Below, one piece after another: positions 690 through 10,442 of a stretch of DNA of 10,442 nt (its first letter is position 1; each line of letters opens with the position of its first letter). The translations under genes and the position numbers were made by a program. The notes below the pieces were generated by a model. That model saw nothing but the letters and a program-made list of their open reading frames with translations, did no database searches and had not been told where the DNA came from. This DNA is from Thermoprotei archaeon (GTDB lineage: Archaea; Thermoproteota; Thermoprotei; Thermoproteales; B15-G16). Location: positions 1 to 10,442 of the forward strand of contig QMRC01000021.1 in NCBI GenBank assembly GCA_003649205.1, read 5' to 3'.

Positions 690-977
690 ATGAAAGAGAT
701 TAGATTCAGACTACGTGATGCTGATTACGAGGTTCTGAGGGCTATTGCAAGGAATCGTGGATATACATCAGTTAATGAATTCGTTAAGCACCTTGTTCTT
801 GACTTGATTGAGAATCGTATAGTTATCGATCAGATAGATTGGAATAACTTGGTTTCGAAGGTGAACCATCTTCATGACAGAATAGATGATTTAGAAACTA
901 AACTTGTAGAGCTTGAAAAAGAGCTGAATGATTTGAAGAACAAGCTCAAAGGAACGTTGTTGTTTAAGGTGAGGTGA
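690..977 (+). CDS. RHH (CopG-like) DNA-binding protein with C-terminal coiled coil
   Basis: KEIRFRL beta strand, DADYEVLRAIARNRG helix, SVNEFVKHLV helix, then heptads (LHDRIDDLETKLVELEKELNDLKNKL). SD GGTGG. Alternative GTG start at 687. Confidence 0.85.
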   Translation: MKEIRFRLRDADYEVLRAIARNRGYTSVNEFVKHLVLDLIENRIVIDQIDWNNLVSKVNHLHDRIDDLETKLVELEKELNDLKNKLKGTLLFKVR

Positions 978-1173: not shown

Positions 1174-1704
1174 ATGGAGAAGAAGAGGGTTGAGTTTAGG
1201 GTAGATGAAGAGCTTCTTGAAGAGTTTGACAAGAAATGCATTGAGCTAGGAATCATGGATAGAACAACATGCATTATCGAGGCTATGAAGGGATTGTTAA
1301 ACAGGTCTCAGACAATAGAATACCTTGACAAGAGGATTGCTAGCAAAATGAAGCAGATGACCATCTATGATATTGTCAAGAAGGCTTTGGAGAAGGAAGC
1401 AAAGGAATTGTCGTATCAGCAAGTAGTTAAGGACTACTACGATAGGTTGAATAATATCATGAAGAAGATTGAACAAGAATTGCTGAGGCTTGAGAATGCA
1501 AGGTCTTCACTTAGGGGTATCGAGGATATGGATAGATACTTTGAGACGTTGAACAAGATCATTGATGAGCTTCATACGATTAGATCAGAATTACAGCAAT
1601 TAGATCAAGAACTGCATGCTATCAGAATTGCGTTATCGAGGAAGTCATCACAGCGTAGATCGAGGAGACGTAGGTATGAAGAATCGGAGATCATTGAGGG
1701 GTGA
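1174..1704 (+). CDS. RHH protein with long coiled coil and basic tail
   Basis: KRVEFRVDEELLEEFDKKCIELGIMDRTTCIIEAM fits RHH; extended heptads; RKSSQRRSRRRR tail; SD GAGGT. Confidence 0.85.
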   Translation: MEKKRVEFRVDEELLEEFDKKCIELGIMDRTTCIIEAMKGLLNRSQTIEYLDKRIASKMKQMTIYDIVKKALEKEAKELSYQQVVKDYYDRLNNIMKKIEQELLRLENARSSLRGIEDMDRYFETLNKIIDELHTIRSELQQLDQELHAIRIALSRKSSQRRSRRRRYEESEIIEG

Positions 1705-2057: not shown

Positions 2058-2258
2058 TCACCCACACGCTGAATTTCTAAAAATCGAATCGATTATCTCA
2101 CGACATTTTGACTCTGCTACAAAGCATCTTACTTCTGTAATTCTATAGCGTCTAAGTTTTTGGTTGTAATCCAACCATACAATTGCTAGCACTCTTTTAT
2201 GTACATCAAATATCCATATCTTCAGCATTGTACCTAGCTTTATCGATTCCATGATCAT
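2058..2258 (-). CDS. Hypothetical protein (66 aa)
   Basis: Start moved to the ATG at 2258, which overlaps the upstream RHH stop (ATGA coupling); beta-rich sequence. Confidence 0.65.
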   Translation of the reverse strand: MIMESIKLGTMLKIWIFDVHKRVLAIVWLDYNQKLRRYRITEVRCFVAESKCREIIDSIFRNSACG

Positions 2259-2473
2259 TGGTTGATCCCCAGCTCTTCTTTGAATTCCTTTAAATGTCTT
2301 ACTGTAAACCATATGCATGCTCTTATGAATTCTGATCTCGATTTGAAACCCAGTGATTTGTACAATTCATCAACTAGCTGAAGGGTTTTGTAATGCATCT
2401 TTAGGCTGATTACTTTTGGATATCCAATATCTGCTTCTTCGAGTTCAATCGTGTATTTGTTTATCCAACGCAT
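2255..2473 (-). CDS. CopG/RHH transcriptional regulator
   Basis: KVISLKM...LQLVDELYKSLGFKSRSEFIRACI is a typical RHH signature. Start is ATG 2473 or GTG 2482. Divergent from the 2584 operon. Confidence 0.85.
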   Translation of the reverse strand: MRWINKYTIELEEADIGYPKVISLKMHYKTLQLVDELYKSLGFKSRSEFIRACIWFTVRHLKEFKEELGINQ

Positions 2474-2482
2474 GTGTATCAC

Positions 2483-2583
2483 GCATGTTATAGTATTATC
2501 TGTCCTACTAATAAACTGTTAATGTACTTACTCCTACGTGTTTATATAGTAACATTGACAAACTATGTATATTGGTGAAATCC
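2483..2583. promoter_or_regulatory. Divergent promoter region with two TCCTAC boxes
   Basis: TTTATATA at 2541-2548 (+); TTTATTA at 2515-2509 (-); GTCCTACTAA 2502-2511; CTCCTACGTG 2531-2540. Confidence 0.6.
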
Positions 2584-3208: not shown

Positions 3209-3367
3209 TTATACAAGCTCTATTCCTAGCTCATCAAGTATTTTTCGTATGTACTCAGCTATTTTCTTTGGATTTGTATACTTTTTGATCATTCTTCTTA
3301 TTCTGATTTCTGTTATGATGCTGTAGCTTAGGAATATTGCTATCATTATGATCATGTCCATGTTCAT
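3209..3367 (-). CDS. Small single-pass membrane protein (52 aa)
   Basis: MNMDMIIMIAIFLSYSII hydrophobic N-terminus, then a basic amphipathic helix. A TATA-like TATATATTTA ~30 nt upstream suggests a leaderless start at 3367. Confidence 0.65.
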   Translation of the reverse strand: MNMDMIIMIAIFLSYSIITEIRIRRMIKKYTNPKKIAEYIRKILDELGIELV

Positions 3368-3425
3368 GTGTAGGACACCAGTACATATTAAATATATACA
3401 GGAATATGTATTCTGAGGTGATCGC

Positions 3426-3746
3426 ATGAAGGAGATCCTCGAAACGATTTCACGTCATTATAAATCACACCATATCGAAGCTCATCCCGTAGCAGAAGAT
3501 GAAGCTGAGATAGTGATTAGGATTGGTATCAAAGGTGTTGAACCCAAACAGCTCGACAACATTGTTAAGATTCTCGATATGTTTGTTACGGGTCTTAGCA
3601 AGGGTAAGCTAGTTATACCTGTTACAAAGAAGACCAAGAAGAAGTTTGAGGAAGAGATGAAGAAGATCGAGAAAGATAGGAAACTCGTACAAAAAGCATT
3701 CTTGGTAGCAAAAGGTCTTCATGTAGAGGGAATGGAGAATGAGTGA
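3426..3746 (+). CDS. Hypothetical protein (106 aa)
   Basis: Strong SD GAGGTGA; AT-rich TATA-like element at 3386-3398; typical codon usage. Confidence 0.8.
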   Translation: MKEILETISRHYKSHHIEAHPVAEDEAEIVIRIGIKGVEPKQLDNIVKILDMFVTGLSKGKLVIPVTKKTKKKFEEEMKKIEKDRKLVQKAFLVAKGLHVEGMENE

Positions 3747-4212
3747 AGAGGGTGGAAAGGTCAAAAGGACATTCAGAATACCGAAAGAGCTTGATGAAGC
3801 TTTGGAGATCTATGCATCTACGAAAGGAATGACAAAGGAAGAAGTAGTTACAACTGCATTGGAATCGTTTCTCAAAGGAGAAATAGTTGATTGGAGTCAA
3901 ATTCGTGGAGACCATATCATTGCAACGCTGAAGCTTTTGCAGTATATCAGAGACCTTGACTTAAAGCATGAGACCGAGAAGACCAAGGTGTATTTGCGTG
4001 CACGATTTGAGGAGATGAGCTATCTATCAGAACTTATCAGAAAGTATGAGGAGAAGAAACGAAAGATGGAGAAGGAAGAGGAGGAAGAGGAAGAAGAGAA
4101 GAGTAGTAAGCTTGAAACGTTGTTGTACTACATGCTTCTTGGTCTTGGTCAGAGACTAGGACTGATAGAATTTGTTGAATTACCTGAGTCTCAAGGTGAA
4201 GAATCCTCTTAG
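3739..4212 (+). CDS. RHH protein with coiled coil and poly-Glu tract
   Basis: KRTFRIPKELDEALEIYASTKGMTKEEVVTTALESFL fits RHH; E8 tract; 8-nt overlap with the upstream gene. Confidence 0.85.
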   Translation: MSEEGGKVKRTFRIPKELDEALEIYASTKGMTKEEVVTTALESFLKGEIVDWSQIRGDHIIATLKLLQYIRDLDLKHETEKTKVYLRARFEEMSYLSELIRKYEEKKRKMEKEEEEEEEEKSSKLETLLYYMLLGLGQRLGLIEFVELPESQGEESS

Positions 4213-4246: not shown

Positions 4247-4273
4247 GTCCTACGCAACATGTTATATATCTTT
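4247..4273 (+). promoter_or_regulatory. Putative late promoter 1 (GTCCTACGCA-N5-TATA)
   Basis: GTCCTACGCA ACATG TTATATATCTTT; starts 58 bp before ATG 4305; aligns without gaps to 5430 and 7111. Confidence 0.8.
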
Positions 4274-4304
4274 CTTTGACGTAATTATTCTTGCAGGTGA
4301 TGTT

Positions 4305-4718
4305 ATGGGTAGGAAAAGATCTTTGCTAAAGAAAACTGAAGAAGAGATTATTGTTGAAGCAATAGCAAGAAGGATTTCAGCACTTGATCGTGCAAAAAGA
4401 GAGTATACATTGAAATACATAGTGAAGAATCCACAATGGGCGGGATGGTTAGCGTTTATGGTGGAGAACCTTGAAAAGCATAAAGATGAACTTGAGAGAC
4501 TCGATCCTGAGAGTAGAGCAAAGCTTGTATGGAGAATTATAAGTGAAGCTAAGGACGCATGGAGAGACCTACCACCTAGTGAAAAGGCTAAGTACATAGA
4601 GAGAGGAAGAACGCTGTTTACTGAGTACAAGAAGACGTTGGAGAAGCTCATCACTGAGGCTAAGGAGTATGAGAAACTTGCTGAAGAAGTTGAGAAGATG
4701 GTTGAAGCTCTCGTGTAA
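4305..4718 (+). CDS. HMG-box-like DNA-binding protein; candidate nucleoprotein
   Basis: K41-x-P43, W48, F51-x2-EN, W86-x2-L89-x3-EK-x2-Y97 and Y108 match the HMG-box consensus; basic N-terminus; SD GGTGA. The CDS is secure; the fold is inferred. Confidence 0.7.
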   Translation: MGRKRSLLKKTEEEIIVEAIARRISALDRAKREYTLKYIVKNPQWAGWLAFMVENLEKHKDELERLDPESRAKLVWRIISEAKDAWRDLPPSEKAKYIERGRTLFTEYKKTLEKLITEAKEYEKLAEEVEKMVEALV

Positions 4719-4731
4719 AGGGGTGGGATAG

Positions 4732-5307
4732 ATGGCTGAGGTTCCCAAGCTTCCAAAGATCAAGGCTGTTGGTAAGAAGGCTCTGATAAGCTTTGTAACA
4801 GGTACAATAACTACAGGTCTATTACGTAATGGTGCTAAGATTCCACAGCTTCATGGAATTGCTAGAGATTGGCTGAAGAGACCAAGGCTAGCAGGTCATG
4901 TTGTAGCAATACCAATGAACTTGATAGCATCTCTATTCGGTAAAGGAGAAGTTAGTGAGCAAGGAGCCTTTGCTCTTGGTTACAGTATTGGTGATGTGAT
5001 AGCAACTGAAGTAATGGATGCTGAGCCCGTTATTCTTGTGTACAATGATAAGATAAGGGTTGAGGGATTCGATGCTAATGCCGAGATAAAGATTATCATA
5101 GATGGTAAGGAGTATGGTGTAGATGCTTTCCAAACCCCAGCAACGTTTGGAACAATTGACACCACGAACAACAAGCTACTAACTGATGGTAGTGGAGTAT
5201 TTGAGGCTAAGTTCAAGGATACCTACGAGCTTGGTAGTGGAGAACACGATGTGTTTGTGTATCAAGTAGGTGCTAAGAAGGCTGGTAGGGTCAAGGTAGC
5301 TCTGTAA
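4732..5307 (+). CDS. Putative virion envelope or coat protein: Gly/Ala-rich apolar helices plus a C-terminal Ig-like domain
   Basis: N-half has three weakly hydrophobic helices. C-half IRVEGFDANAEIKIIIDG...TDGSGVFEAKF...GEHDVFV fits an Ig-like beta sandwich. SD GGGGTGG. Confidence 0.7.
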   Translation: MAEVPKLPKIKAVGKKALISFVTGTITTGLLRNGAKIPQLHGIARDWLKRPRLAGHVVAIPMNLIASLFGKGEVSEQGAFALGYSIGDVIATEVMDAEPVILVYNDKIRVEGFDANAEIKIIIDGKEYGVDAFQTPATFGTIDTTNNKLLTDGSGVFEAKFKDTYELGSGEHDVFVYQVGAKKAGRVKVAL

Positions 5308-5328
5308 AATCGTTCTTGAACCAAAATC

Positions 5329-5352
5329 TATTTTTTAACATATTTTCGTTTT
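5329..5352 (+). terminator. Oligo-T terminator
   Basis: T6 tract followed by further T runs after the 5307 stop. Confidence 0.55.
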
Positions 5353-5429
5353 ACACAGCTCAACTCAATTCTCGTGCTCTTCGAGACTGATGGTGATTAC
5401 CAGATTTTATCGTGTTTGAAGCAATATTT

Positions 5430-5456
5430 GTCCTACGCATAATTGTAGATATCTTT
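5430..5456 (+). promoter_or_regulatory. Putative late promoter 2
   Basis: GTCCTACGCA TAATT GTAGATATCTTT; 59 bp before ATG 5489. Confidence 0.75.
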
Positions 5457-5488
5457 GCTAATACTAATTCTATATTGCAGGTGAAAAC

Positions 5489-6721
5489 ATGATTATAGTC
5501 AAGGATTTTCCACGTGTGATACCAGCTCAAGCTTGTCCAGTAGTACAGGCTAAGATCATCGGTCACAACGGTAGGATTCTACGAGTTAAGTCAATAGATT
5601 ACTTCACGAAGAAGGTCATTGATGAGTATACCGTGAACATAACTAGCGATCCATTCGAGTACAACCTTACGTTTCCTACAGGTGACACCAACGAGATTAT
5701 TGTTGGTATCATAACGGTTGAGGATAGCAACGGTAATGTCTACGAATTCTACGAGACGCACATCATTCACATACCAGACAACGAGATTAGGGATCTTGGT
5801 GAAGAATACGAGATCTGGTATATTGCGAAGAATGGCTTTAGTGTCAAGGTCAAGGATACGAGGATGTATATACCAAACGATGGTATCTGCATGATCATAG
5901 CGTGGAAGAAAGGGAAGCTGATTGTTTGGGACGGTACCTACAAAGAGTATACAGGAAGATCAGCATTGCTGAAGCTGAGGTTTGTCGTGAGGAGAGATCT
6001 TGCGAGTGTCTATGCTAACACTATCGATGATAAGGATGTTACTGATATCATCTACAAGGTACCAGATCTTGCACCAATCGTTGGTGCTATTAGACTTGTT
6101 AAGCACATCTTCGAGGATAGGCGATTTACACCTGTAGCAGTTTCAGTTGAGTACGATGATAATAATGTGTATATCGAGGTTACGACACATGTAGATCTAT
6201 ATTCACCAATTGACCTTTGGGGCTTAATCAAAATACTAACAGGTGTCGGTGCTATAGTAGCAGGTGCAATTCTATTGATAGCAAGTGCAGGTGTATCAGC
6301 ACCACTATCATATGCGATGTTCACAGTTGGTGCTATGTCTATAGCATGTGGATTGATATCGATATTCGATGCAAAGCTACAGGAATCACCAAAGCAGATA
6401 GTGGAATATGCAAGATCAGTTGCTGAAGAAGCGAAGCAGAAGAATAGATCGACTAGACAAAAGCTTGAGGACTACCTCAACCAATTGGTTACAGAAGGAA
6501 AGATCACAGAGGATGAGAAGAACAAGATCCTTAGATATGTAGATGAAATTATTGCTACGTCTGAAGAAGCAATGGATGAGCTAGTGAATTCAGTTGATAA
6601 AGCTTACAAGAATGGATATAACGATGGTCTTGAGGAAGGAAAGAAGAGAGCAATTGTATACTCAGCAATTGCAGGAGGAGTAGGTTTTGGTATTGGAGTA
6701 ATTGCAGGTAAGAAGGTGTAG
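5489..6721 (+). CDS. Putative minor virion membrane protein: beta-rich N-domain, hydrophobic hairpin, coiled coil, C-terminal TM
   Basis: Apolar aa ~243-293 with two Gly/Ala-rich helices; charged helical region; C-terminal AIVYSAIAGGVGFGIGVIAG; SD AGGTGA. Confidence 0.75.
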   Translation: MIIVKDFPRVIPAQACPVVQAKIIGHNGRILRVKSIDYFTKKVIDEYTVNITSDPFEYNLTFPTGDTNEIIVGIITVEDSNGNVYEFYETHIIHIPDNEIRDLGEEYEIWYIAKNGFSVKVKDTRMYIPNDGICMIIAWKKGKLIVWDGTYKEYTGRSALLKLRFVVRRDLASVYANTIDDKDVTDIIYKVPDLAPIVGAIRLVKHIFEDRRFTPVAVSVEYDDNNVYIEVTTHVDLYSPIDLWGLIKILTGVGAIVAGAILLIASAGVSAPLSYAMFTVGAMSIACGLISIFDAKLQESPKQIVEYARSVAEEAKQKNRSTRQKLEDYLNQLVTEGKITEDEKNKILRYVDEIIATSEEAMDELVNSVDKAYKNGYNDGLEEGKKRAIVYSAIAGGVGFGIGVIAGKKV

Positions 6722-6725
6722 AGCT

Positions 6726-6932
6726 ATGGCTGAGAACCACAACACAAAGTTGTTGATTCACTACATTCTTAAGGAGCTTGAGAAGATTAATGATGAACTT
6801 GGTGTCTTAGCTGAGAGGATAGCGAGGTTAGAAGCTCAGCAATCGACTACACATATGATCATCAAGTATGTTGTTGTTCCATTGCTTGGAATAGTTGCGG
6901 GTCTTGTAGGTCTTAAACTGTTCTTACCTTAG
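6726..6932 (+). CDS. Coiled-coil protein with a C-terminal TM helix (XhlA-like architecture)
   Basis: LEKINDELGVLAERIARLE heptads, then IIKYVVVPLLGIVAGLVGLKLFLP. ATG 6726 lies 4 nt after the upstream stop; SD AGGTG. Confidence 0.75.
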   Translation: MAENHNTKLLIHYILKELEKINDELGVLAERIARLEAQQSTTHMIIKYVVVPLLGIVAGLVGLKLFLP

Positions 6933-6943
6933 TGTACAAAACC

Positions 6944-6952
6944 TGTTTTTTA
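6944..6952 (+). terminator. Oligo-T terminator
   Basis: T6 tract 13 nt after the 6932 stop. Confidence 0.45.
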
Positions 6953-6976
6953 CAATTCTCTAAATGGGTAGGAGTC

Positions 6977-7123
6977 ATGAAGGTTATTCGTATACGCATA
7001 GAGAACGACTTGTACGAGCTTCTAAGGTCTAGGATTCCAAAGGGTGAGCTGAGTGCAAGAATAAGGAAGCTGATCGAGAAGCATATTGATGAGCTGATTG
7101 AGAATCGTAAGTCCTACGGATAA
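6977..7123 (+). CDS. Minimal RHH protein (48 aa)
   Basis: MKVIRIRIENDLYELLRSRIPKGELSARIRKLIEKHI; start set to ATG 6977 after GGTAGGAG. Confidence 0.8.
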   Translation: MKVIRIRIENDLYELLRSRIPKGELSARIRKLIEKHIDELIENRKSYG

Positions 7124-7137
7124 TTGTATATATTTCT
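7111..7137 (+). promoter_or_regulatory. Putative late promoter 3
   Basis: GTCCTACGGA TAATT GTATATATTTCT; 58 bp before ATG 7169; overlaps the last codons of the RHH gene. Confidence 0.8.
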
Positions 7138-7168
7138 ACTTGTTGTTACTACAGTTAAGGGTGCTACT

Positions 7169-8512
7169 ATGCCGACTCTTTCTCAATTAATTGAAATTAG
7201 TGATTCGGCTGAGCCAATTCCATCATATGTAACAGAAGATGAAAAGTATCTGTATGCTGTACTTAACTTTGGTGGTAATCCGAATAATCAAGGTAGGATA
7301 GTAAAGATCGATTTGACACAGTCACCACCATCATTAACAGCACTATTGACACACAGTAGACTTGCAATGTGGCAACAGGTATACTTGAAGGAAAAGAACA
7401 AGCTATATGCGTTTGGTGAGCTAGATGATGAGAACGGTACTCAGAGAGCTGGTGTTGCAATAGCAGATCTTAGTAATGATACTGCACAAATAGTGTATCA
7501 TCCAAATACTGGTGACTGTAATGAGTTTATAGGAGTAGCATATGATGAGAAGACTAAGCAGTTCATTGTTGGCGAAAGAAAGGGTGGTGGTGTTACAACT
7601 GGTAGTAATTATCCAAATGGAGGTGGTTTATGGACTATTCCGCTAGAAGACATACTTAATCCAAGTGCTTGGAATAGAGTTCACGAGTTCTCACCATTAC
7701 CAAACGAGTCAGTGAATCCATCAGTGTTTAAGATAGCTATAGTTGGTGATCAAGTATTTGTGATACTAAAAGGGGATTCAATTGCGAGATTGGTCAAAGC
7801 AAGTATATCAGATCTGACAACGTGGGAAACAATTGAGGATCTAGACATTGCTACTGGTATCGAGAAGTGGGGTAAGAGAATAGCCTATGTAAGCAAAGAT
7901 CCTAACACAGGTAATGCTGTACTGAAGTATTCCGATGATGGAGGTGCAACTTGGAATACGATTGATCTTGGTGCATCTCCATCTACTTTGTCAGATTTGG
8001 CAATGCCTGTTATAATGCCGATACTATATGGTAAGTATGCTATTGTGGTTGCACAACACAGTCAAGGTGCTAAGGTTCTGCTAGTCGATATCGATGGAGG
8101 TAGTGTATCGCAGATAGACACGATGACAAATCCGTATTGTCCACACAATGTCGGTACTCAGAGAAATGACAAAGTGTTCATAGGTAATAGTGCTTCACAA
8201 TCACCTGGTTATATCTATCAGCTATCATTTGATACAAGGTATGTAATAGCTATTGCTCTAAGCAAAACTAATCCCGCTCCTGGTGAAACCATAACCATTA
8301 CGGCAACTTTGAAGGATGCAAATGGAAATCCTGTATCTGATGCTGAGATAGAGTTCTATGTTATAACAGCTAAGGTTGATGATAGACACTATGGTGATCT
8401 TATAGGTACTGCTAAAACAGATGCGAATGGAAATGCATCAGTACAGTATACAATACCTAGTACGCTAAAGCAAGGAGATGTGGTAGTATTCAGAGCGGTG
8501 TACAAAGGTTAA
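7169..8512 (+). CDS. Beta-propeller (BNR/Asp-box) protein with a C-terminal Ig-like (Big_1-type) domain; putative receptor-binding adhesin
   Basis: Asp-box YSDDGGATW (7928-7954); blade-like repeats (GRIVKIDL, GGLWTIPL, AKVLLVDI, GYIYQLSF); GETITITATLKDANGNPVSDAEIEF...AKTDANGNASVQYT. Start 7169 is supported by SD AGGGTG and promoter spacing. Confidence 0.85.
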   Translation: MPTLSQLIEISDSAEPIPSYVTEDEKYLYAVLNFGGNPNNQGRIVKIDLTQSPPSLTALLTHSRLAMWQQVYLKEKNKLYAFGELDDENGTQRAGVAIADLSNDTAQIVYHPNTGDCNEFIGVAYDEKTKQFIVGERKGGGVTTGSNYPNGGGLWTIPLEDILNPSAWNRVHEFSPLPNESVNPSVFKIAIVGDQVFVILKGDSIARLVKASISDLTTWETIEDLDIATGIEKWGKRIAYVSKDPNTGNAVLKYSDDGGATWNTIDLGASPSTLSDLAMPVIMPILYGKYAIVVAQHSQGAKVLLVDIDGGSVSQIDTMTNPYCPHNVGTQRNDKVFIGNSASQSPGYIYQLSFDTRYVIAIALSKTNPAPGETITITATLKDANGNPVSDAEIEFYVITAKVDDRHYGDLIGTAKTDANGNASVQYTIPSTLKQGDVVVFRAVYKG

Positions 8513-8523
8513 TGGGTGGTTAG

Positions 8524-8805
8524 ATGCCAACTTATAGCGATGCTGTAGCAAATGTCACTATATCGTATGGTTCACCATCATATGCTGATGCAGTAGCAAG
8601 TGTAACAGCTATAGTACTTGGTTCACCAACTTATAGCGATGACGTAGCAAGTGTAACAGTTGTAACAAGGTCACCATCATATGCTGATACAGTAGCAGTT
8701 GTTACACAGATACCAAAACCTAGGAAAATCGAGAAAAAGCCTTGGTGGATACTGATAGTTTTGGACATCCTCGTTAAACTAGGTCTTTCACGAATTAGAA
8801 AGTAA
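8524..8805 (+). CDS. Four-repeat peptide with a C-terminal membrane anchor
   Basis: Four P(T/S)Y(S/A)DxVAxVT repeats, a PKPRKIEKKP linker, WWILIVLDILVKLGL and a basic RIRK end; SD GGGTGGT. Confidence 0.8.
   Translation: MPTYSDAVANVTISYGSPSYADAVASVTAIVLGSPTYSDDVASVTVVTRSPSYADTVAVVTQIPKPRKIEKKPWWILIVLDILVKLGLSRIRK
8527..8709 (+). repeat. ABAB tandem repeat, 99-bp period
   Basis: CCAACTTATAGCGATG at 8527 and 8626; TCACCATCATATGCTGAT at 8572 and 8671. Confidence 0.9.
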
Positions 8806-8817
8806 CTCCAACACAAA

Positions 8818-8836
8818 TTATTTTTATATTCTTTTC
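8818..8836 (+). terminator. Oligo-T terminator
   Basis: TTATTTTTATATTCTTTT after the 8805 stop. Confidence 0.5.
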
Positions 8837-8841
8837 TCGTA

Positions 8842-8896
8842 AAACCCCCTAGCTAGTTTCGTTTCTCTAGGGCGTGAGTGCTTATATAGGGGTTTA
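8842..8896 (+). promoter_or_regulatory. Recombinase promoter bracketed by inverted AAACCCC(C)TA sites
   Basis: AAACCCCCTA 8842-8851, TATA box TTATATA 8882-8888, TAGGGGTTTA 8887-8896. Confidence 0.6.
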
Positions 8897-8913: not shown

Positions 8914-10356
8914 ATGATACATATGTCCTACGCATGGTATCAAAACCTACATCCCAAGATCAAGGAGATTTTGGATAACCTACAGGTTAGAACTTCACAA
9001 CTCCTAAAGCAGTATGGTTCACTACAAAAAGCAGGAAGACCAATCTTTGAATCCGAGGAAGAAGTTGCAGTTGTCTACTATATTGCTAGAGAAATCGCTA
9101 GCTATGCTGAAGTAGCAGGATACCTAAACGTTACCAAGCAAAGTGTCTACAACTGGATCAAGTCTATTGAGAACAAAGGAAAGATAACGATATACGACTC
9201 CAAAACCGCTAAGACAATAATCATTGACTTCACACCTGAGAAAGCTAAGGAGATAATCAACAAGATCACAGCACCAAGTGGAAAGAAGCATGTTAAGGAC
9301 GCTCTTGAAGCTAAGTGCATCAAGGAGTTTGTTGAGAACCCAATCAAAAGGACTAGAAGGGCTCATGGTGTAAGTTATTACAGTCCTGCAAAGGTTAAGC
9401 AGATCATATCGAAAGTGCAAGATCTCATAGACTTCATCAAGGCTAAGAACTTAGATATTCCTAGCAATCCTGATATGTGGGATGAAGACTCGATACGTAG
9501 AGTCATAGAGATGTATTGTCAAGAGAAGTATGAGAATGATCTTCAGAAAGTGCCTAGGTGTATACGAAACATAAAGAAGACCCTTAGACACATACCAAGG
9601 TTTAGCAATTGGTTTAGTGGTGAAATAGGTGCTGAGATATCATTTGCTAGGTTCAAGGAGAATGTACTATTCTATGAGCACTATCTAAGGATAAAGAAGC
9701 TCATGAAAGAAGGTAAGATAGCTGAGGTAGAATGGTTGATTCCTGCATTGCATATTCTATTGGGTTGCAGAGAGGGATGGGGTACACTAACAGCTCAAGG
9801 AAAGAAGCTTAGTGATGTTAAGCTAGATGATGCTTCTAGTAGCCTCATAGGATTGAAATGGAGAGATGCTATCTTCGATGCTAACGGTAACATCATTGGT
9901 TTCCACATCTATGAGCACAAGACTGAGAAGGTATGGTCTCTACGATACAATTGGCTTGATCCAGAAATCCTTGAGAAGGTAACTGAGATATTCAAGAAGA
10001 TGAATCCAAAGCCTGAAGAGAGCGTGATCAAGACAATTCTTAGGTACTATGGAATCAAGATCGAGACCGTATCACAGTTTGCAAATTGGTATAAGAGAGT
10101 ATTGAAATGGATAAGCAAACAGCTCAACCTACCTTGGACATTAACGCCTCACGATATGAGACGTGCTCATTTATCGATAATGGCTGATCTCGAAATACCA
10201 TTGGAGATAGCCCTCAAGGATACAGGTTTTGGAGTGGGATGGGATGACATCAAAACAGCGGTAGACTTCTACCTAAGAATCAGCTCAAGAAGAATCAATA
10301 GAATCCTAGCAAGGGCTGAAGAGATCAAGAAGACCATCGAAGCTCAGCTATCATAA
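8914..10356 (+). CDS. int: Tyrosine recombinase/integrase with an N-terminal helix-turn-helix
   Basis: Catalytic set R286 (LGCREG), K336 (EHKT), H413-x-x-R416 (PHDMRR), W443 (GVGW), Y453. HTH: SYAEVAGYLNVTKQSVYNWIKS. Alternative start ATG 8923. Confidence 0.88.
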   Translation: MIHMSYAWYQNLHPKIKEILDNLQVRTSQLLKQYGSLQKAGRPIFESEEEVAVVYYIAREIASYAEVAGYLNVTKQSVYNWIKSIENKGKITIYDSKTAKTIIIDFTPEKAKEIINKITAPSGKKHVKDALEAKCIKEFVENPIKRTRRAHGVSYYSPAKVKQIISKVQDLIDFIKAKNLDIPSNPDMWDEDSIRRVIEMYCQEKYENDLQKVPRCIRNIKKTLRHIPRFSNWFSGEIGAEISFARFKENVLFYEHYLRIKKLMKEGKIAEVEWLIPALHILLGCREGWGTLTAQGKKLSDVKLDDASSSLIGLKWRDAIFDANGNIIGFHIYEHKTEKVWSLRYNWLDPEILEKVTEIFKKMNPKPEESVIKTILRYYGIKIETVSQFANWYKRVLKWISKQLNLPWTLTPHDMRRAHLSIMADLEIPLEIALKDTGFGVGWDDIKTAVDFYLRISSRRINRILARAEEIKKTIEAQLS

Positions 10357-10403: not shown

Positions 10404-10442
10404 TATTATATATTTCCTTATAATATATATAGAGTACTTTCA
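10404..10442 (+). repeat. Right terminal direct repeat
   Basis: Identical to 1-39; begins 47 bp after the recombinase stop codon. Confidence 0.97.

Follow-up and report, generated by a model that had tools for sequence, protein, structure and literature searches.

A repeated box beside the TATA region of three surface-protein operons in a circular archaeal element is a predicted lineage-specific cis-element

In this study, we identified a repeated promoter box in a 10,442-nucleotide (nt) stretch of DNA from a Thermoprotei archaeon (contig QMRC01000021.1 of assembly GCA_003649205.1), which was analyzed at its full length and is called the window below. The box, GTCCTACG(C/G)A, lies upstream of the TATA region of three two-gene operons for predicted membrane-anchored, beta-sandwich surface-type proteins and is proposed to be a cis-regulatory element of these operons. 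Judged from the sequence, it very probably acts in transcription as a cis-element bound by some factor. The more specific reading, in which one element-encoded factor binds the box, co-regulates the three operons and activates them there, seems to us evenly balanced between right and wrong. The window is the entire contig C21 of a 31-contig, 2,066,741-base assembly, to which it is linked by binning only, and its G+C content is 39.1%, against 42–44% in the large contigs of the assembly. Positions 1–39 recur at 10404–10442 as a 39-nt terminal direct repeat and, since the first 39 bases recur at the end, the contig is read as a closed circle of approximately 10,403 bp. The window is a complete circular element of approximately 10.4 kb that carries an integrase.

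The three promoters, all on the forward strand, form a 30-nt direct-repeat family (D3, 77–83% identity in a repeat search of the window). In promoter 1 (4247..4276), which heads 4305–5307, the box GTCCTACGCA (4247–4256) is followed by the 5-nt spacer ACATG and then TTATATATCTTT, and the TATA-like sequence TTATATAT is at 4262–4269. Promoter 2 (5430..5459), heading 5489–6932, has the same box GTCCTACGCA, the spacer TAATT and then GTAGATATCTTT; it reads GTAGATAT after the spacer, and its best reading as a BRE (the element that transcription factor B recognizes) and TATA box is CATAAT/TGTAGATA. Promoter 3 (7111..7140), heading 7169–8805, has the box GTCCTACGGA, the spacer TAATT and then GTATATATTTCT, with GTATATAT after the spacer and GATAAT/TGTATATA as BRE/TATA. 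Its box also encodes KSYG, the final residues of a small open reading frame (ORF, 6977–7123), just before the stop codon. The ATGs at 4305, 5489 and 7169 are 58, 59 and 58 nt downstream of the box starts, and the strings and fixed spacing from which the original prediction of a shared, constrained cis-element had started are present exactly at 4247, 5430 and 7111. That prediction also stands in that all three promoters have the box at a fixed distance from the TATA box, 15 nt upstream when counted from start to start. The box ends 5 nt from the TATA-like octamer and overlaps the best-fitting BRE hexamer by approximately 2 nt. Its agreement is 10, 10 and 9 of 10 letters; the spacer and the approximately 25 nt beyond the TATA box diverge, and the constraint appears to be on the box rather than on the whole promoter. 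The box is non-palindromic and occurs once per promoter; a CTAC...GTAG symmetry is found in only one of the three. Shared beyond it are the TATA box and a following TCTTT/TTTCT within the 30-nt repeat, and the Shine-Dalgarno regions of two of the three promoters are alike (TTGCAGGTGA).

Each promoter heads a two-gene unit closed by a T tract on the forward strand, as had been predicted. Operon 1 encodes a 137-amino acid (aa) basic helical protein (4305–4718) and a 191-aa protein (4732–5307) with hydrophobic N-terminal helices and a C-terminal beta domain, whose family was found in eight elements; a T6 tract (5331..5336) lies 24 nt past the stop codon. Operon 2 encodes a 410-aa protein (5489–6721) and a 68-aa protein with a hydrophobic tail (6726–6932), with a T6 tract (6946..6951) 14 nt past the stop codon. 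Operon 3 encodes a 447-aa protein (7169–8512) and a 93-aa protein (8524–8805), with a T5 tract (8821..8825) 16 nt past the stop codon. Forward-strand runs of at least five T between 4247 and 10403 occur only at 5331, 6946, 8821 and 10365, each just after a two-gene unit or the integrase gene, and the operon picture holds because the T runs follow only the three units and the integrase gene. The 410-aa protein has an N-terminal beta-sandwich region, hydrophobic helices and long C-terminal helices. Its structural model, built from 16 sequences, has a mean predicted local distance difference test (pLDDT) score of 66 and a predicted template-modelling (pTM) score of 0.56, the N-terminal beta-rich part being confident, and a fold search returned only generic immunoglobulin-like (Ig-like) or fibronectin type III-like (FN3-like) matches with a TM-score of at most 0.29. 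Other relatives of this protein are P0039 (75%, from an 11.3-kb contig), P0040 (59%), P0042 (58%), P0043 (42%) and P0046 (34%). At residues 373–428, the 447-aa protein shows an Ig-like match to Big_1 that is below the threshold. The 93-aa protein has four repeats of approximately 16 residues, SP(T/S)Y(S/A)DAVA.VT, encoded by 48–51-nt DNA repeats and followed by a hydrophobic tail. The operon products are predicted to be surface or membrane-anchored proteins, which would fit an envelope, and can be regarded as putative virion proteins, putatively late.

The core of the box, TCCTACG, occurs five times in the window, all on the forward strand, against 0.54 expected, and none of 200 shuffled sequences reaches five. 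At up to two mismatches, the 10-mer occurs nine times against 4.56 expected; 15 of the 200 shuffles reach nine, which gives no enrichment beyond the known copies. Across all 2,066,741 bases of the assembly, the exact 10-mer is found three times, each time in this contig (the control, read backwards, gives one occurrence). The remaining 2,056,299 bases contain, on both strands, 198 TCCTACG and 23 GTCCTACG, from which simple arithmetic gives expectations on the element of approximately 1.0 and 0.12, compared with five and four seen.

These counts bear on the idea that a host protein, either a transcription factor or an alternative transcription factor B (TFB), reads the box as an extended core-promoter element copied by the element. 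A precedent is the host factor Sta1, which activates rudivirus promoters according to PMC1635249. No element regulator has been tied to the box, and the partial frame GT...ACGCA is common to three lineages that probably have different hosts, as described below. We nevertheless consider this idea improbable. The exact 10-mer is absent from the other 2.06 Mb, to which the contig was assigned by binning only, none of the 23 host copies of GTCCTACG resembles the box plus TATA, and the 15 host TCCTACG sites that precede AT-rich DNA do not look like the box either. In 987 crudely defined host upstream regions, the frame GTnnnACG(C/T)A shows no positional peak. The variable triplet of the frame also differs between elements (CCT, AAA and TTC), as expected of element-specific factors. 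A host factor is less likely because the 10-mer is absent from the other contigs, no host TCCTACG site is like the box and TATA, no positional peak is seen, and the triplet varies between elements; the host-wide pattern fits an element-encoded factor, as far as these sequences indicate.

Relatives of the element were collected by a metagenome contig scan with an integrase alignment, which gave 80 loci; 87 loci were used in the protein comparisons. When the 20 proteins of the window were compared with these 87 loci, the integrase was found in 86, the 410-aa protein in two (L010 and L065), three early window proteins only in L006, and the 447-aa protein had one borderline match (E 0.001); the other 14 proteins were found in none. 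The 44 related loci with a length of 5 kb or more showed no enrichment of TCCTACG. Two candidates were set aside: the three TCCTACG on one strand of L007 are not promoter-like, and a near-match in L074 is in repeated coding sequence.

Locus L010, whose 14,683-base contig is circular and ends in a terminal repeat of 127 bases, has a box of its own. Its integrase and its homologue of the 410-aa protein are 38% and 32% identical to those of the window. The 14-mer GTAAAACGCATCAA occurs in four copies, all on the forward strand and each followed by an AT-rich TATA-like stretch, at 67, 61, 57 and 58 nt before start codons (the last is GTG 12879, chosen by N-terminus homology). One boxed unit encodes proteins of 496 and 255 aa with repeats and a hydrophobic tail and resembles the 447- plus 93-aa unit of the window in layout (gene sizes and order) only; another copy stands before a 217-aa gene. 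In the boxed 164- plus 183-aa unit, the 183-aa protein is homologous to window 4732–5307 (E 5e-7), and in the boxed 431- plus 97-aa unit, the 431-aa protein is homologous to window 5489–6721 (E 1.5e-51). The three window promoters and the four of L010 align in one register, with invariant columns at the letters G, T, A, C, G and A of GTnnnACGnA and at three A's within the TATA region. The L010 copy at 10103 has a different TATA region and an identical 14-mer, and because of this the box appears to be conserved on its own, apart from the remaining promoter.

The window and L010 each have an upstream ORF whose end falls within or at a box copy (L010 2647–2650 and 10103–10106; window 7111–7123). 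In L010, the TAA within GTAAAACG is the stop codon of two ORFs, and one box-ending ORF in each element is a very small ribbon-helix-helix-like gene.

A third lineage has a box before its operon of the 191-aa family: GTTTCACGCA in L028 and L035 and GTTTCACGTA in L019, followed by ATATTTATAA, 54 nt before the start codon. Each of these loci carries GTTTCACG(C/T)A once, and they are counted as one lineage because they are close kin. The loose pattern GTnnnACG(C/T)A also occurs at non-promoter places in the eight elements of the 191-aa family, so a single loose copy is not significant, and what counts is the register before a homologous operon. We regard the box as a conserved, lineage-specific candidate cis-element because L010 and the third lineage have their own boxes before homologous operons. 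Before a 391-aa gene in the same three loci (L028 10340–10414, L019 12455–12530 and L035 875–950), we also observed GTCTACGATATAGCGTAAAAATATTAAC, whose start suggestively resembles the window box minus one letter (GTC-TACG).

These relatives also bear on whether the box is only a passenger, that is, whether one promoter cassette was duplicated three times and the copies are young, with no separate function for the box. The 30-nt repeat is indeed shared including TATA and TCTTT/TTTCT, and two Shine-Dalgarno regions are alike. However, the box is the best-kept part of the repeat while the spacer and the downstream letters have diverged, the L010 14-mer is identical in the copy with a different TATA region, the frame stands in the same register in elements whose proteins are only 32–38% identical, and one exact copy, at 8925, is outside any promoter cassette. 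A passenger box is thus very improbable in our judgement.

Searches beyond the related loci returned little. In viral contigs, single-protein scans found no relatives, alignment A1 found two distant loci and alignment A4 none; a scan for the box plus TATA gave two single matches, in 39-kb and 60-kb contigs, which were taken as chance, and the L010 pattern of box plus TATA gave none. Of 119 other genomes in the class, one was matched by alignment A4, in its C-terminal part only (E 1.4e-5), and tblastn of the 410-aa protein and the L010 183-aa protein found nothing in phages. A de novo search of the loci for a repeated box plus AT-rich sequence was noisy, and beyond L010 only a block in L034, L053 and L068 stood out. 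These more distant integrase relatives carry four to seven copies of an approximately 50-nt block (…TCTTTTCTTCAGCATAATATTTATAAGCTTTCTAAC…) before a row of small genes (10440–14420 in L053), another case of repeated promoters in the wider group.

The window contains further copies of the box. A fourth one, the exact GTCCTACGCA, is at 8925–8934 on the forward strand in codons 2–4 of the integrase gene (ATG 8923), approximately 40 nt downstream of the integrase TATA-like sequence CTTATATAGG. In L006, whose integrase is 88% identical, ACATATGTCCTACGCATGGTAT is unchanged and letters a few bases further differ. A degenerate box, CTCCTACGTG (2531..2549, forward strand), directly abuts TTTATATA/TTTATATAG, the TATA of the operon starting at 2584, in the divergent promoter region between 2255–2473 (reverse strand) and 2584 (forward strand). 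A weaker forward copy, GTCCTACTAA, is at 2502, 29 nt upstream of the 2531 copy, and a one-mismatch copy, GTCCTACACA (3367..3376, reverse strand), lies beside a bidirectional AT-rich promoter region (3385–3400). The one- and two-mismatch copies are individually within chance. The idea that the motif marks the six candidate virion genes was right insofar as it stands before their three operons, but the motif is not confined to them, as further copies occur at the start codon of the integrase and, in a degenerate version, in the promoter of the 2584 operon.

The copy inside the integrase gene raises the question of a non-transcriptional role, as a signal for packaging, an iteron for replication, or an arm or core site of the integrase. 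The integrase-like recombinase (8923..10356, forward strand, 477 aa) has an N-terminal helix-turn-helix (HTH_23, 22.8 bits, below the cut-off), which together with the exact copy in its gene would suit such a role. Its Pfam search gave no integrase match at E <=0.01; an alignment of relatives shows invariant R283, H410, R413, H416 and Y450, which we take to be the tyrosine-recombinase pattern. Against this role, the copies are on one strand and three of them stand at a fixed 15 nt from TATA and 58–59 nt from the ATG, an integrase relative is present in 86 of the 87 loci while such a repeated box was found only in L010, no copy of the 10-mer that could serve as attB exists in the host assembly, and the repeat-rich non-coding region 1–690 is a better candidate for an origin or attachment (att) site. 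We therefore hold a non-transcriptional role to be extremely unlikely.

The integrase has 34 relatives at E <=0.001, most of them approximately 35–42% identical and on metagenome contigs of 10–17 kb, and three of four matches in the genome collection are in metagenome-assembled genomes labelled Desulfurococcaceae or Desulfurococcales. One of 60 related genomes has a relative (E 2e-4); tblastn found none in plasmids and one weak match in phages (28.5% identity over 43% of the query). Upstream of the integrase TATA, at 8840–8875, we observed AAACCCCCTAGCTAGTTTCGTTTCTCTAGGG with inverted CCCTAG...CTAGGG arms. This sequence recurs nearly letter for letter at L006 75–115 while its neighbours vary, and may be a second site, for regulation or recombination.

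Core-promoter strength was assessed against the Sulfolobales BRE/TATA consensus RNWAAWTTTAWATR (10.64898/2026.06.17.732947), which is not the consensus of this host. An own host promoter model, obtained by expectation maximization on 221 host upstream regions, had low information and scattered positions and was not used. The 4247, 5430 and 7111 promoters match 10, 10 and 12 of the 13 specified positions, and eight other candidate promoters of the element match 8–11. Of 2000 random 55-nt windows, 240 reach 10 (top 12%) and seven reach 12. By this measure, the three promoters appear to be among the best in the element. The original prediction had described them as weak, with no BRE and a non-canonical TATA box, and this claim is unsupported because they match the consensus at 10, 10 and 12 of 13 positions.

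Such cores are an argument for the main rival explanation, a pure repressor. A ribbon-helix-helix repressor of the element, bound beside the BRE, would silence the three strong structural promoters, the integrase and the 2584 operon in a carrier or integrated state, and expression would follow loss of the repressor. In addition to the near-consensus cores, the box overlaps the first letters of the best-fitting BRE hexamer. Of the other copies, one lies downstream of the integrase TATA and one abuts the 2584 TATA, places at which repression alone would be expected. In Sulfolobales and their viruses, small ribbon-helix-helix proteins act as repressors by way of short promoter boxes, as described for aCcr1 (PMC9976878), and the PHROG matches of the proteins at 3739 and 1174 are named Arc-like repressors. 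Conversely, the box at the three operons is wholly upstream of TATA and almost wholly upstream of the BRE, which is the typical position of an activator in the account of PMC5512572, and the aCcr1 boxes are between TATA and the start codon (PMC9976878), unlike those in the window. There is also no tandem or palindromic site. We consider a pure repressor possible but somewhat unlikely.

Our favoured explanation combines both kinds of action in one factor. From the observed repeat, its register, its lineage-specific conservation and the operon boundaries, we infer protein binding, with a predicted binder, sign and timing. One sequence-specific DNA-binding protein would dock at the box; it would most likely be a product of the element itself and probably a small ribbon-helix-helix protein. 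The bound protein would touch or compete with TFB, as in the best fit the final two letters of the box are also the first two of the BRE hexamer. Binding would activate the promoters of the three operons, and at the integrase start codon (8925) and the 2584 TATA (2531) this protein would be a roadblock or occluder. The outcome would be a switch, with the structural genes on and the early genes and integrase off. A single factor acting by position is favoured because the position of the box fits an activator, the strength of the cores fits a repressor, and the sites at 8925 and 2531 fit hindrance only.

The element encodes several candidates for this factor. The one at 6977..7123 (forward strand, 48 aa) is ribbon-helix-helix-like by eye only, has no family match and ends at box 3. 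The reverse-strand gene 2255..2473 (2255c) encodes a 72–75-aa ribbon-helix-helix protein (Pfam RHH_1 at 19.1 bits, cut-off 20.5) and is the sole small DNA-binding protein with a detectable homologue in L010 (5105c, E 1e-5). Three others are on the forward strand: a 95-aa ribbon-helix-helix-like protein with a coiled coil and weak DUF6290 and PHROG matches (690..977), a 176-aa ribbon-helix-helix protein with a coiled coil (1174..1704; RHH_1 at 19.9 bits, below the 20.5 cut-off; PHROG Arc-like), and a 157-aa protein encoded directly upstream of promoter 1 (3739..4212; PHROG Arc-like repressor match, E 2e-6). The 2584 protein is ribbon-helix-helix-like by eye only. We found no homologue of activators of the EarA, Ptr2 or TFB-RF1 type in the element, and tblastn of 13 small proteins against all loci gave no informative phyletic pattern (L10_5470 was out of frame and uninformative).

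Several observations on these proteins are worth recording. Those of 6977–7123 and 690–977 share, by eye, the start MK.IR.R....YE.LR and the end KH...LIENR, the latter covered by repeat D12; BLASTP gave no significant support for paralogy (E 1.9). Should the two be paralogues, competition for a single DNA site would be possible. The T6 tract at 6946 is approximately 27 nt before the ATG of the 48-aa ORF 6977 and could double as the TATA of a leaderless transcript, which would read into promoter 3. In most related loci, an approximately 190-aa protein with CxxC…CxxC and a coiled coil is encoded beside the integrase (L010 6950–7525 and approximately 60 others), and the window proteins at 1174 and 3739 are weakly like the L010 6950 family (E 0.005 and 0.017).

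A number of points weigh against activation through one element-encoded factor. The activation reading is weakened because the core promoters are near-consensus and do not look activator-dependent. No regulator detectably co-varies with the box. Box-like sites are found in the promoter of 2255c in the window and not in that of its L010 homologue. For ribbon-helix-helix operators, a single non-palindromic site would be unusual. Coding constraint alone could account for conservation of the 8925 copy; there, such constraint is inseparable from a regulatory site because only two sequences are available, those of the window and L006, and both integrases start with MSYAW. Among the relatives, L061, L023 and L065 lack the box frame in front of the homologous operon, and L065 has homologues of two operons with no shared upstream box found. 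Finally, an nhmmer profile of the seven promoters run on the 87 loci recovered those seven at E <=0.0031, and the next match was at E 2.7.

The comparison between lineages suggests an address code, which we regard as doubtful at present. The frame GT---ACGCA would hold a variable triplet (CCT in the window, AAA in L010 and TTC in the L028 group) that co-evolves with an element-encoded small regulator. Each virus-like, integrase-bearing Thermoproteota element of 10–15 kb would switch on only its own surface-protein operons, and copies at other kinds of position would let its regulator shut the integrase and an early operon. If true, this would be a specificity system like lambda immunity, built on the archaeal machinery of TATA-binding protein (TBP) and TFB.

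Repeated sequences beside promoter cores are known from other archaeal elements. SIRV1 and SIRV2 have a further, virus-specific consensus element next to their promoter cores (PMC1635249). A consensus of early genes has been described for SIRV2 and approximately 57 other archaeal virus genomes, where differences in the flanks from virus to virus were taken to indicate different regulators (PMC11065993). As in both cases, several genes of a small genome share sequence flanking an ordinary BRE/TATA core in the window, and as in the latter, relatives have a similar core and element-specific flanking letters (the window, L010 and L028). The archaeal virus consensus differs in that it belongs to early anti-defence genes, extends 30–100 bp on both sides of the core and comes with expression data, whereas the window box is 10–14 nt, is upstream only, belongs to operons of surface or structural type in uncultured Thermoproteota and is known from sequence alone. 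The window case is a further example of a virus-specific promoter consensus, in an unclassified element family.

The typical binding site of archaeal activators is directly upstream of the BRE, and that of repressors is over the promoter or downstream of it (PMC5512572). Like the sites of EarA, Ptr2 and TFB-RF1, the window box is immediately upstream of BRE/TATA, at a fixed distance and in several promoters. Unlike them, it is not combined with a weak BRE or TATA, the feature that makes those promoters dependent on their activator, as the window promoters match 10–12 of the 13 Sulfolobales consensus positions, and EarA sites are four 6-bp repeats whereas the window has a single 10-nt box. A second comparison is with aCcr1, a small ribbon-helix-helix factor that represses through a palindromic 9-bp box between TATA and the start codon, as PMC9976878 describes. 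Here too, the element encodes ribbon-helix-helix-type proteins of 48–96 aa, like aCcr1 and its viral homologues, and a short box (9–10 nt) is common to a promoter set and kept at equivalent positions in relatives. In contrast to the aCcr1 box, the window box is non-palindromic, stands upstream of the BRE at three operons, and its binding is predicted only. SSV1 F55, SvtR and AvtR are reportedly also small ribbon-helix-helix regulators with short promoter boxes. The intergenic repeats of halovirus HF2 carry promoters (PMC8707807) and are similar in being repeated intergenic sequences with AT-rich motifs; the HF2 sequence and its positions are conserved within a virus genus. They differ in length (29–58 bp), belong to a tailed haloarchaeal virus and were tested with reporters, whereas the window repeat is known from its letters and only its upstream box is strictly kept.

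The window box is distinct from these known cases in marking surface-protein operons rather than early genes and in having a short frame common across lineages. Our literature searches, which were not aimed at this element family, found no description of it. Target sites are known for few of the regulators of archaeal viruses or plasmids, and for almost none from uncultured Thermoproteota. The window offers a compact, directly testable system, with one box, three near-consensus promoters, two copies at repression-like positions and six small candidate regulators encoded in 10.4 kb. The different box of L010 in the same register may provide a route to how specificity evolves and to position-dependent opposite signs of one factor. 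In an element family whose proteins lack database matches, the box can also serve as an annotation handle that points to modules of surface or structural genes.

Nothing resembling the element was found among public plasmid and phage records: when its complete sequence was compared with both by megablast, there was no match, in agreement with the tblastn searches. In the host assembly, no att site or match to a spacer of clustered regularly interspaced short palindromic repeats (CRISPR) was found elsewhere, apart from a single 18-nt chance match, and Rfam and tRNA scans of the window detected no RNA genes. No RNA run was among those listed for the window. A sediment DNA sequencing run that contains the element also has contigs from diverged relatives: 30 of 66 compared contig pieces are less than 90% alike to the window, and therefore several related strains share one sample. 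Among the 40 of 604 differences listed against the contigs of this run, none is in the three promoters, too small a share to judge conservation of the box. Region 1–690 of the window is repeat-rich, has approximately 650 nt with no convincing gene, and is a candidate origin or attachment region. It contains the repeats ATGGTTACGGTTATGTGGA and ATGGTCACGGTTATGAGGA, approximately 50 nt apart near 530–600, and several words of the form GGGGGTC(T/A)(G/T)ATG or CAGACCCCCC at 200–445.

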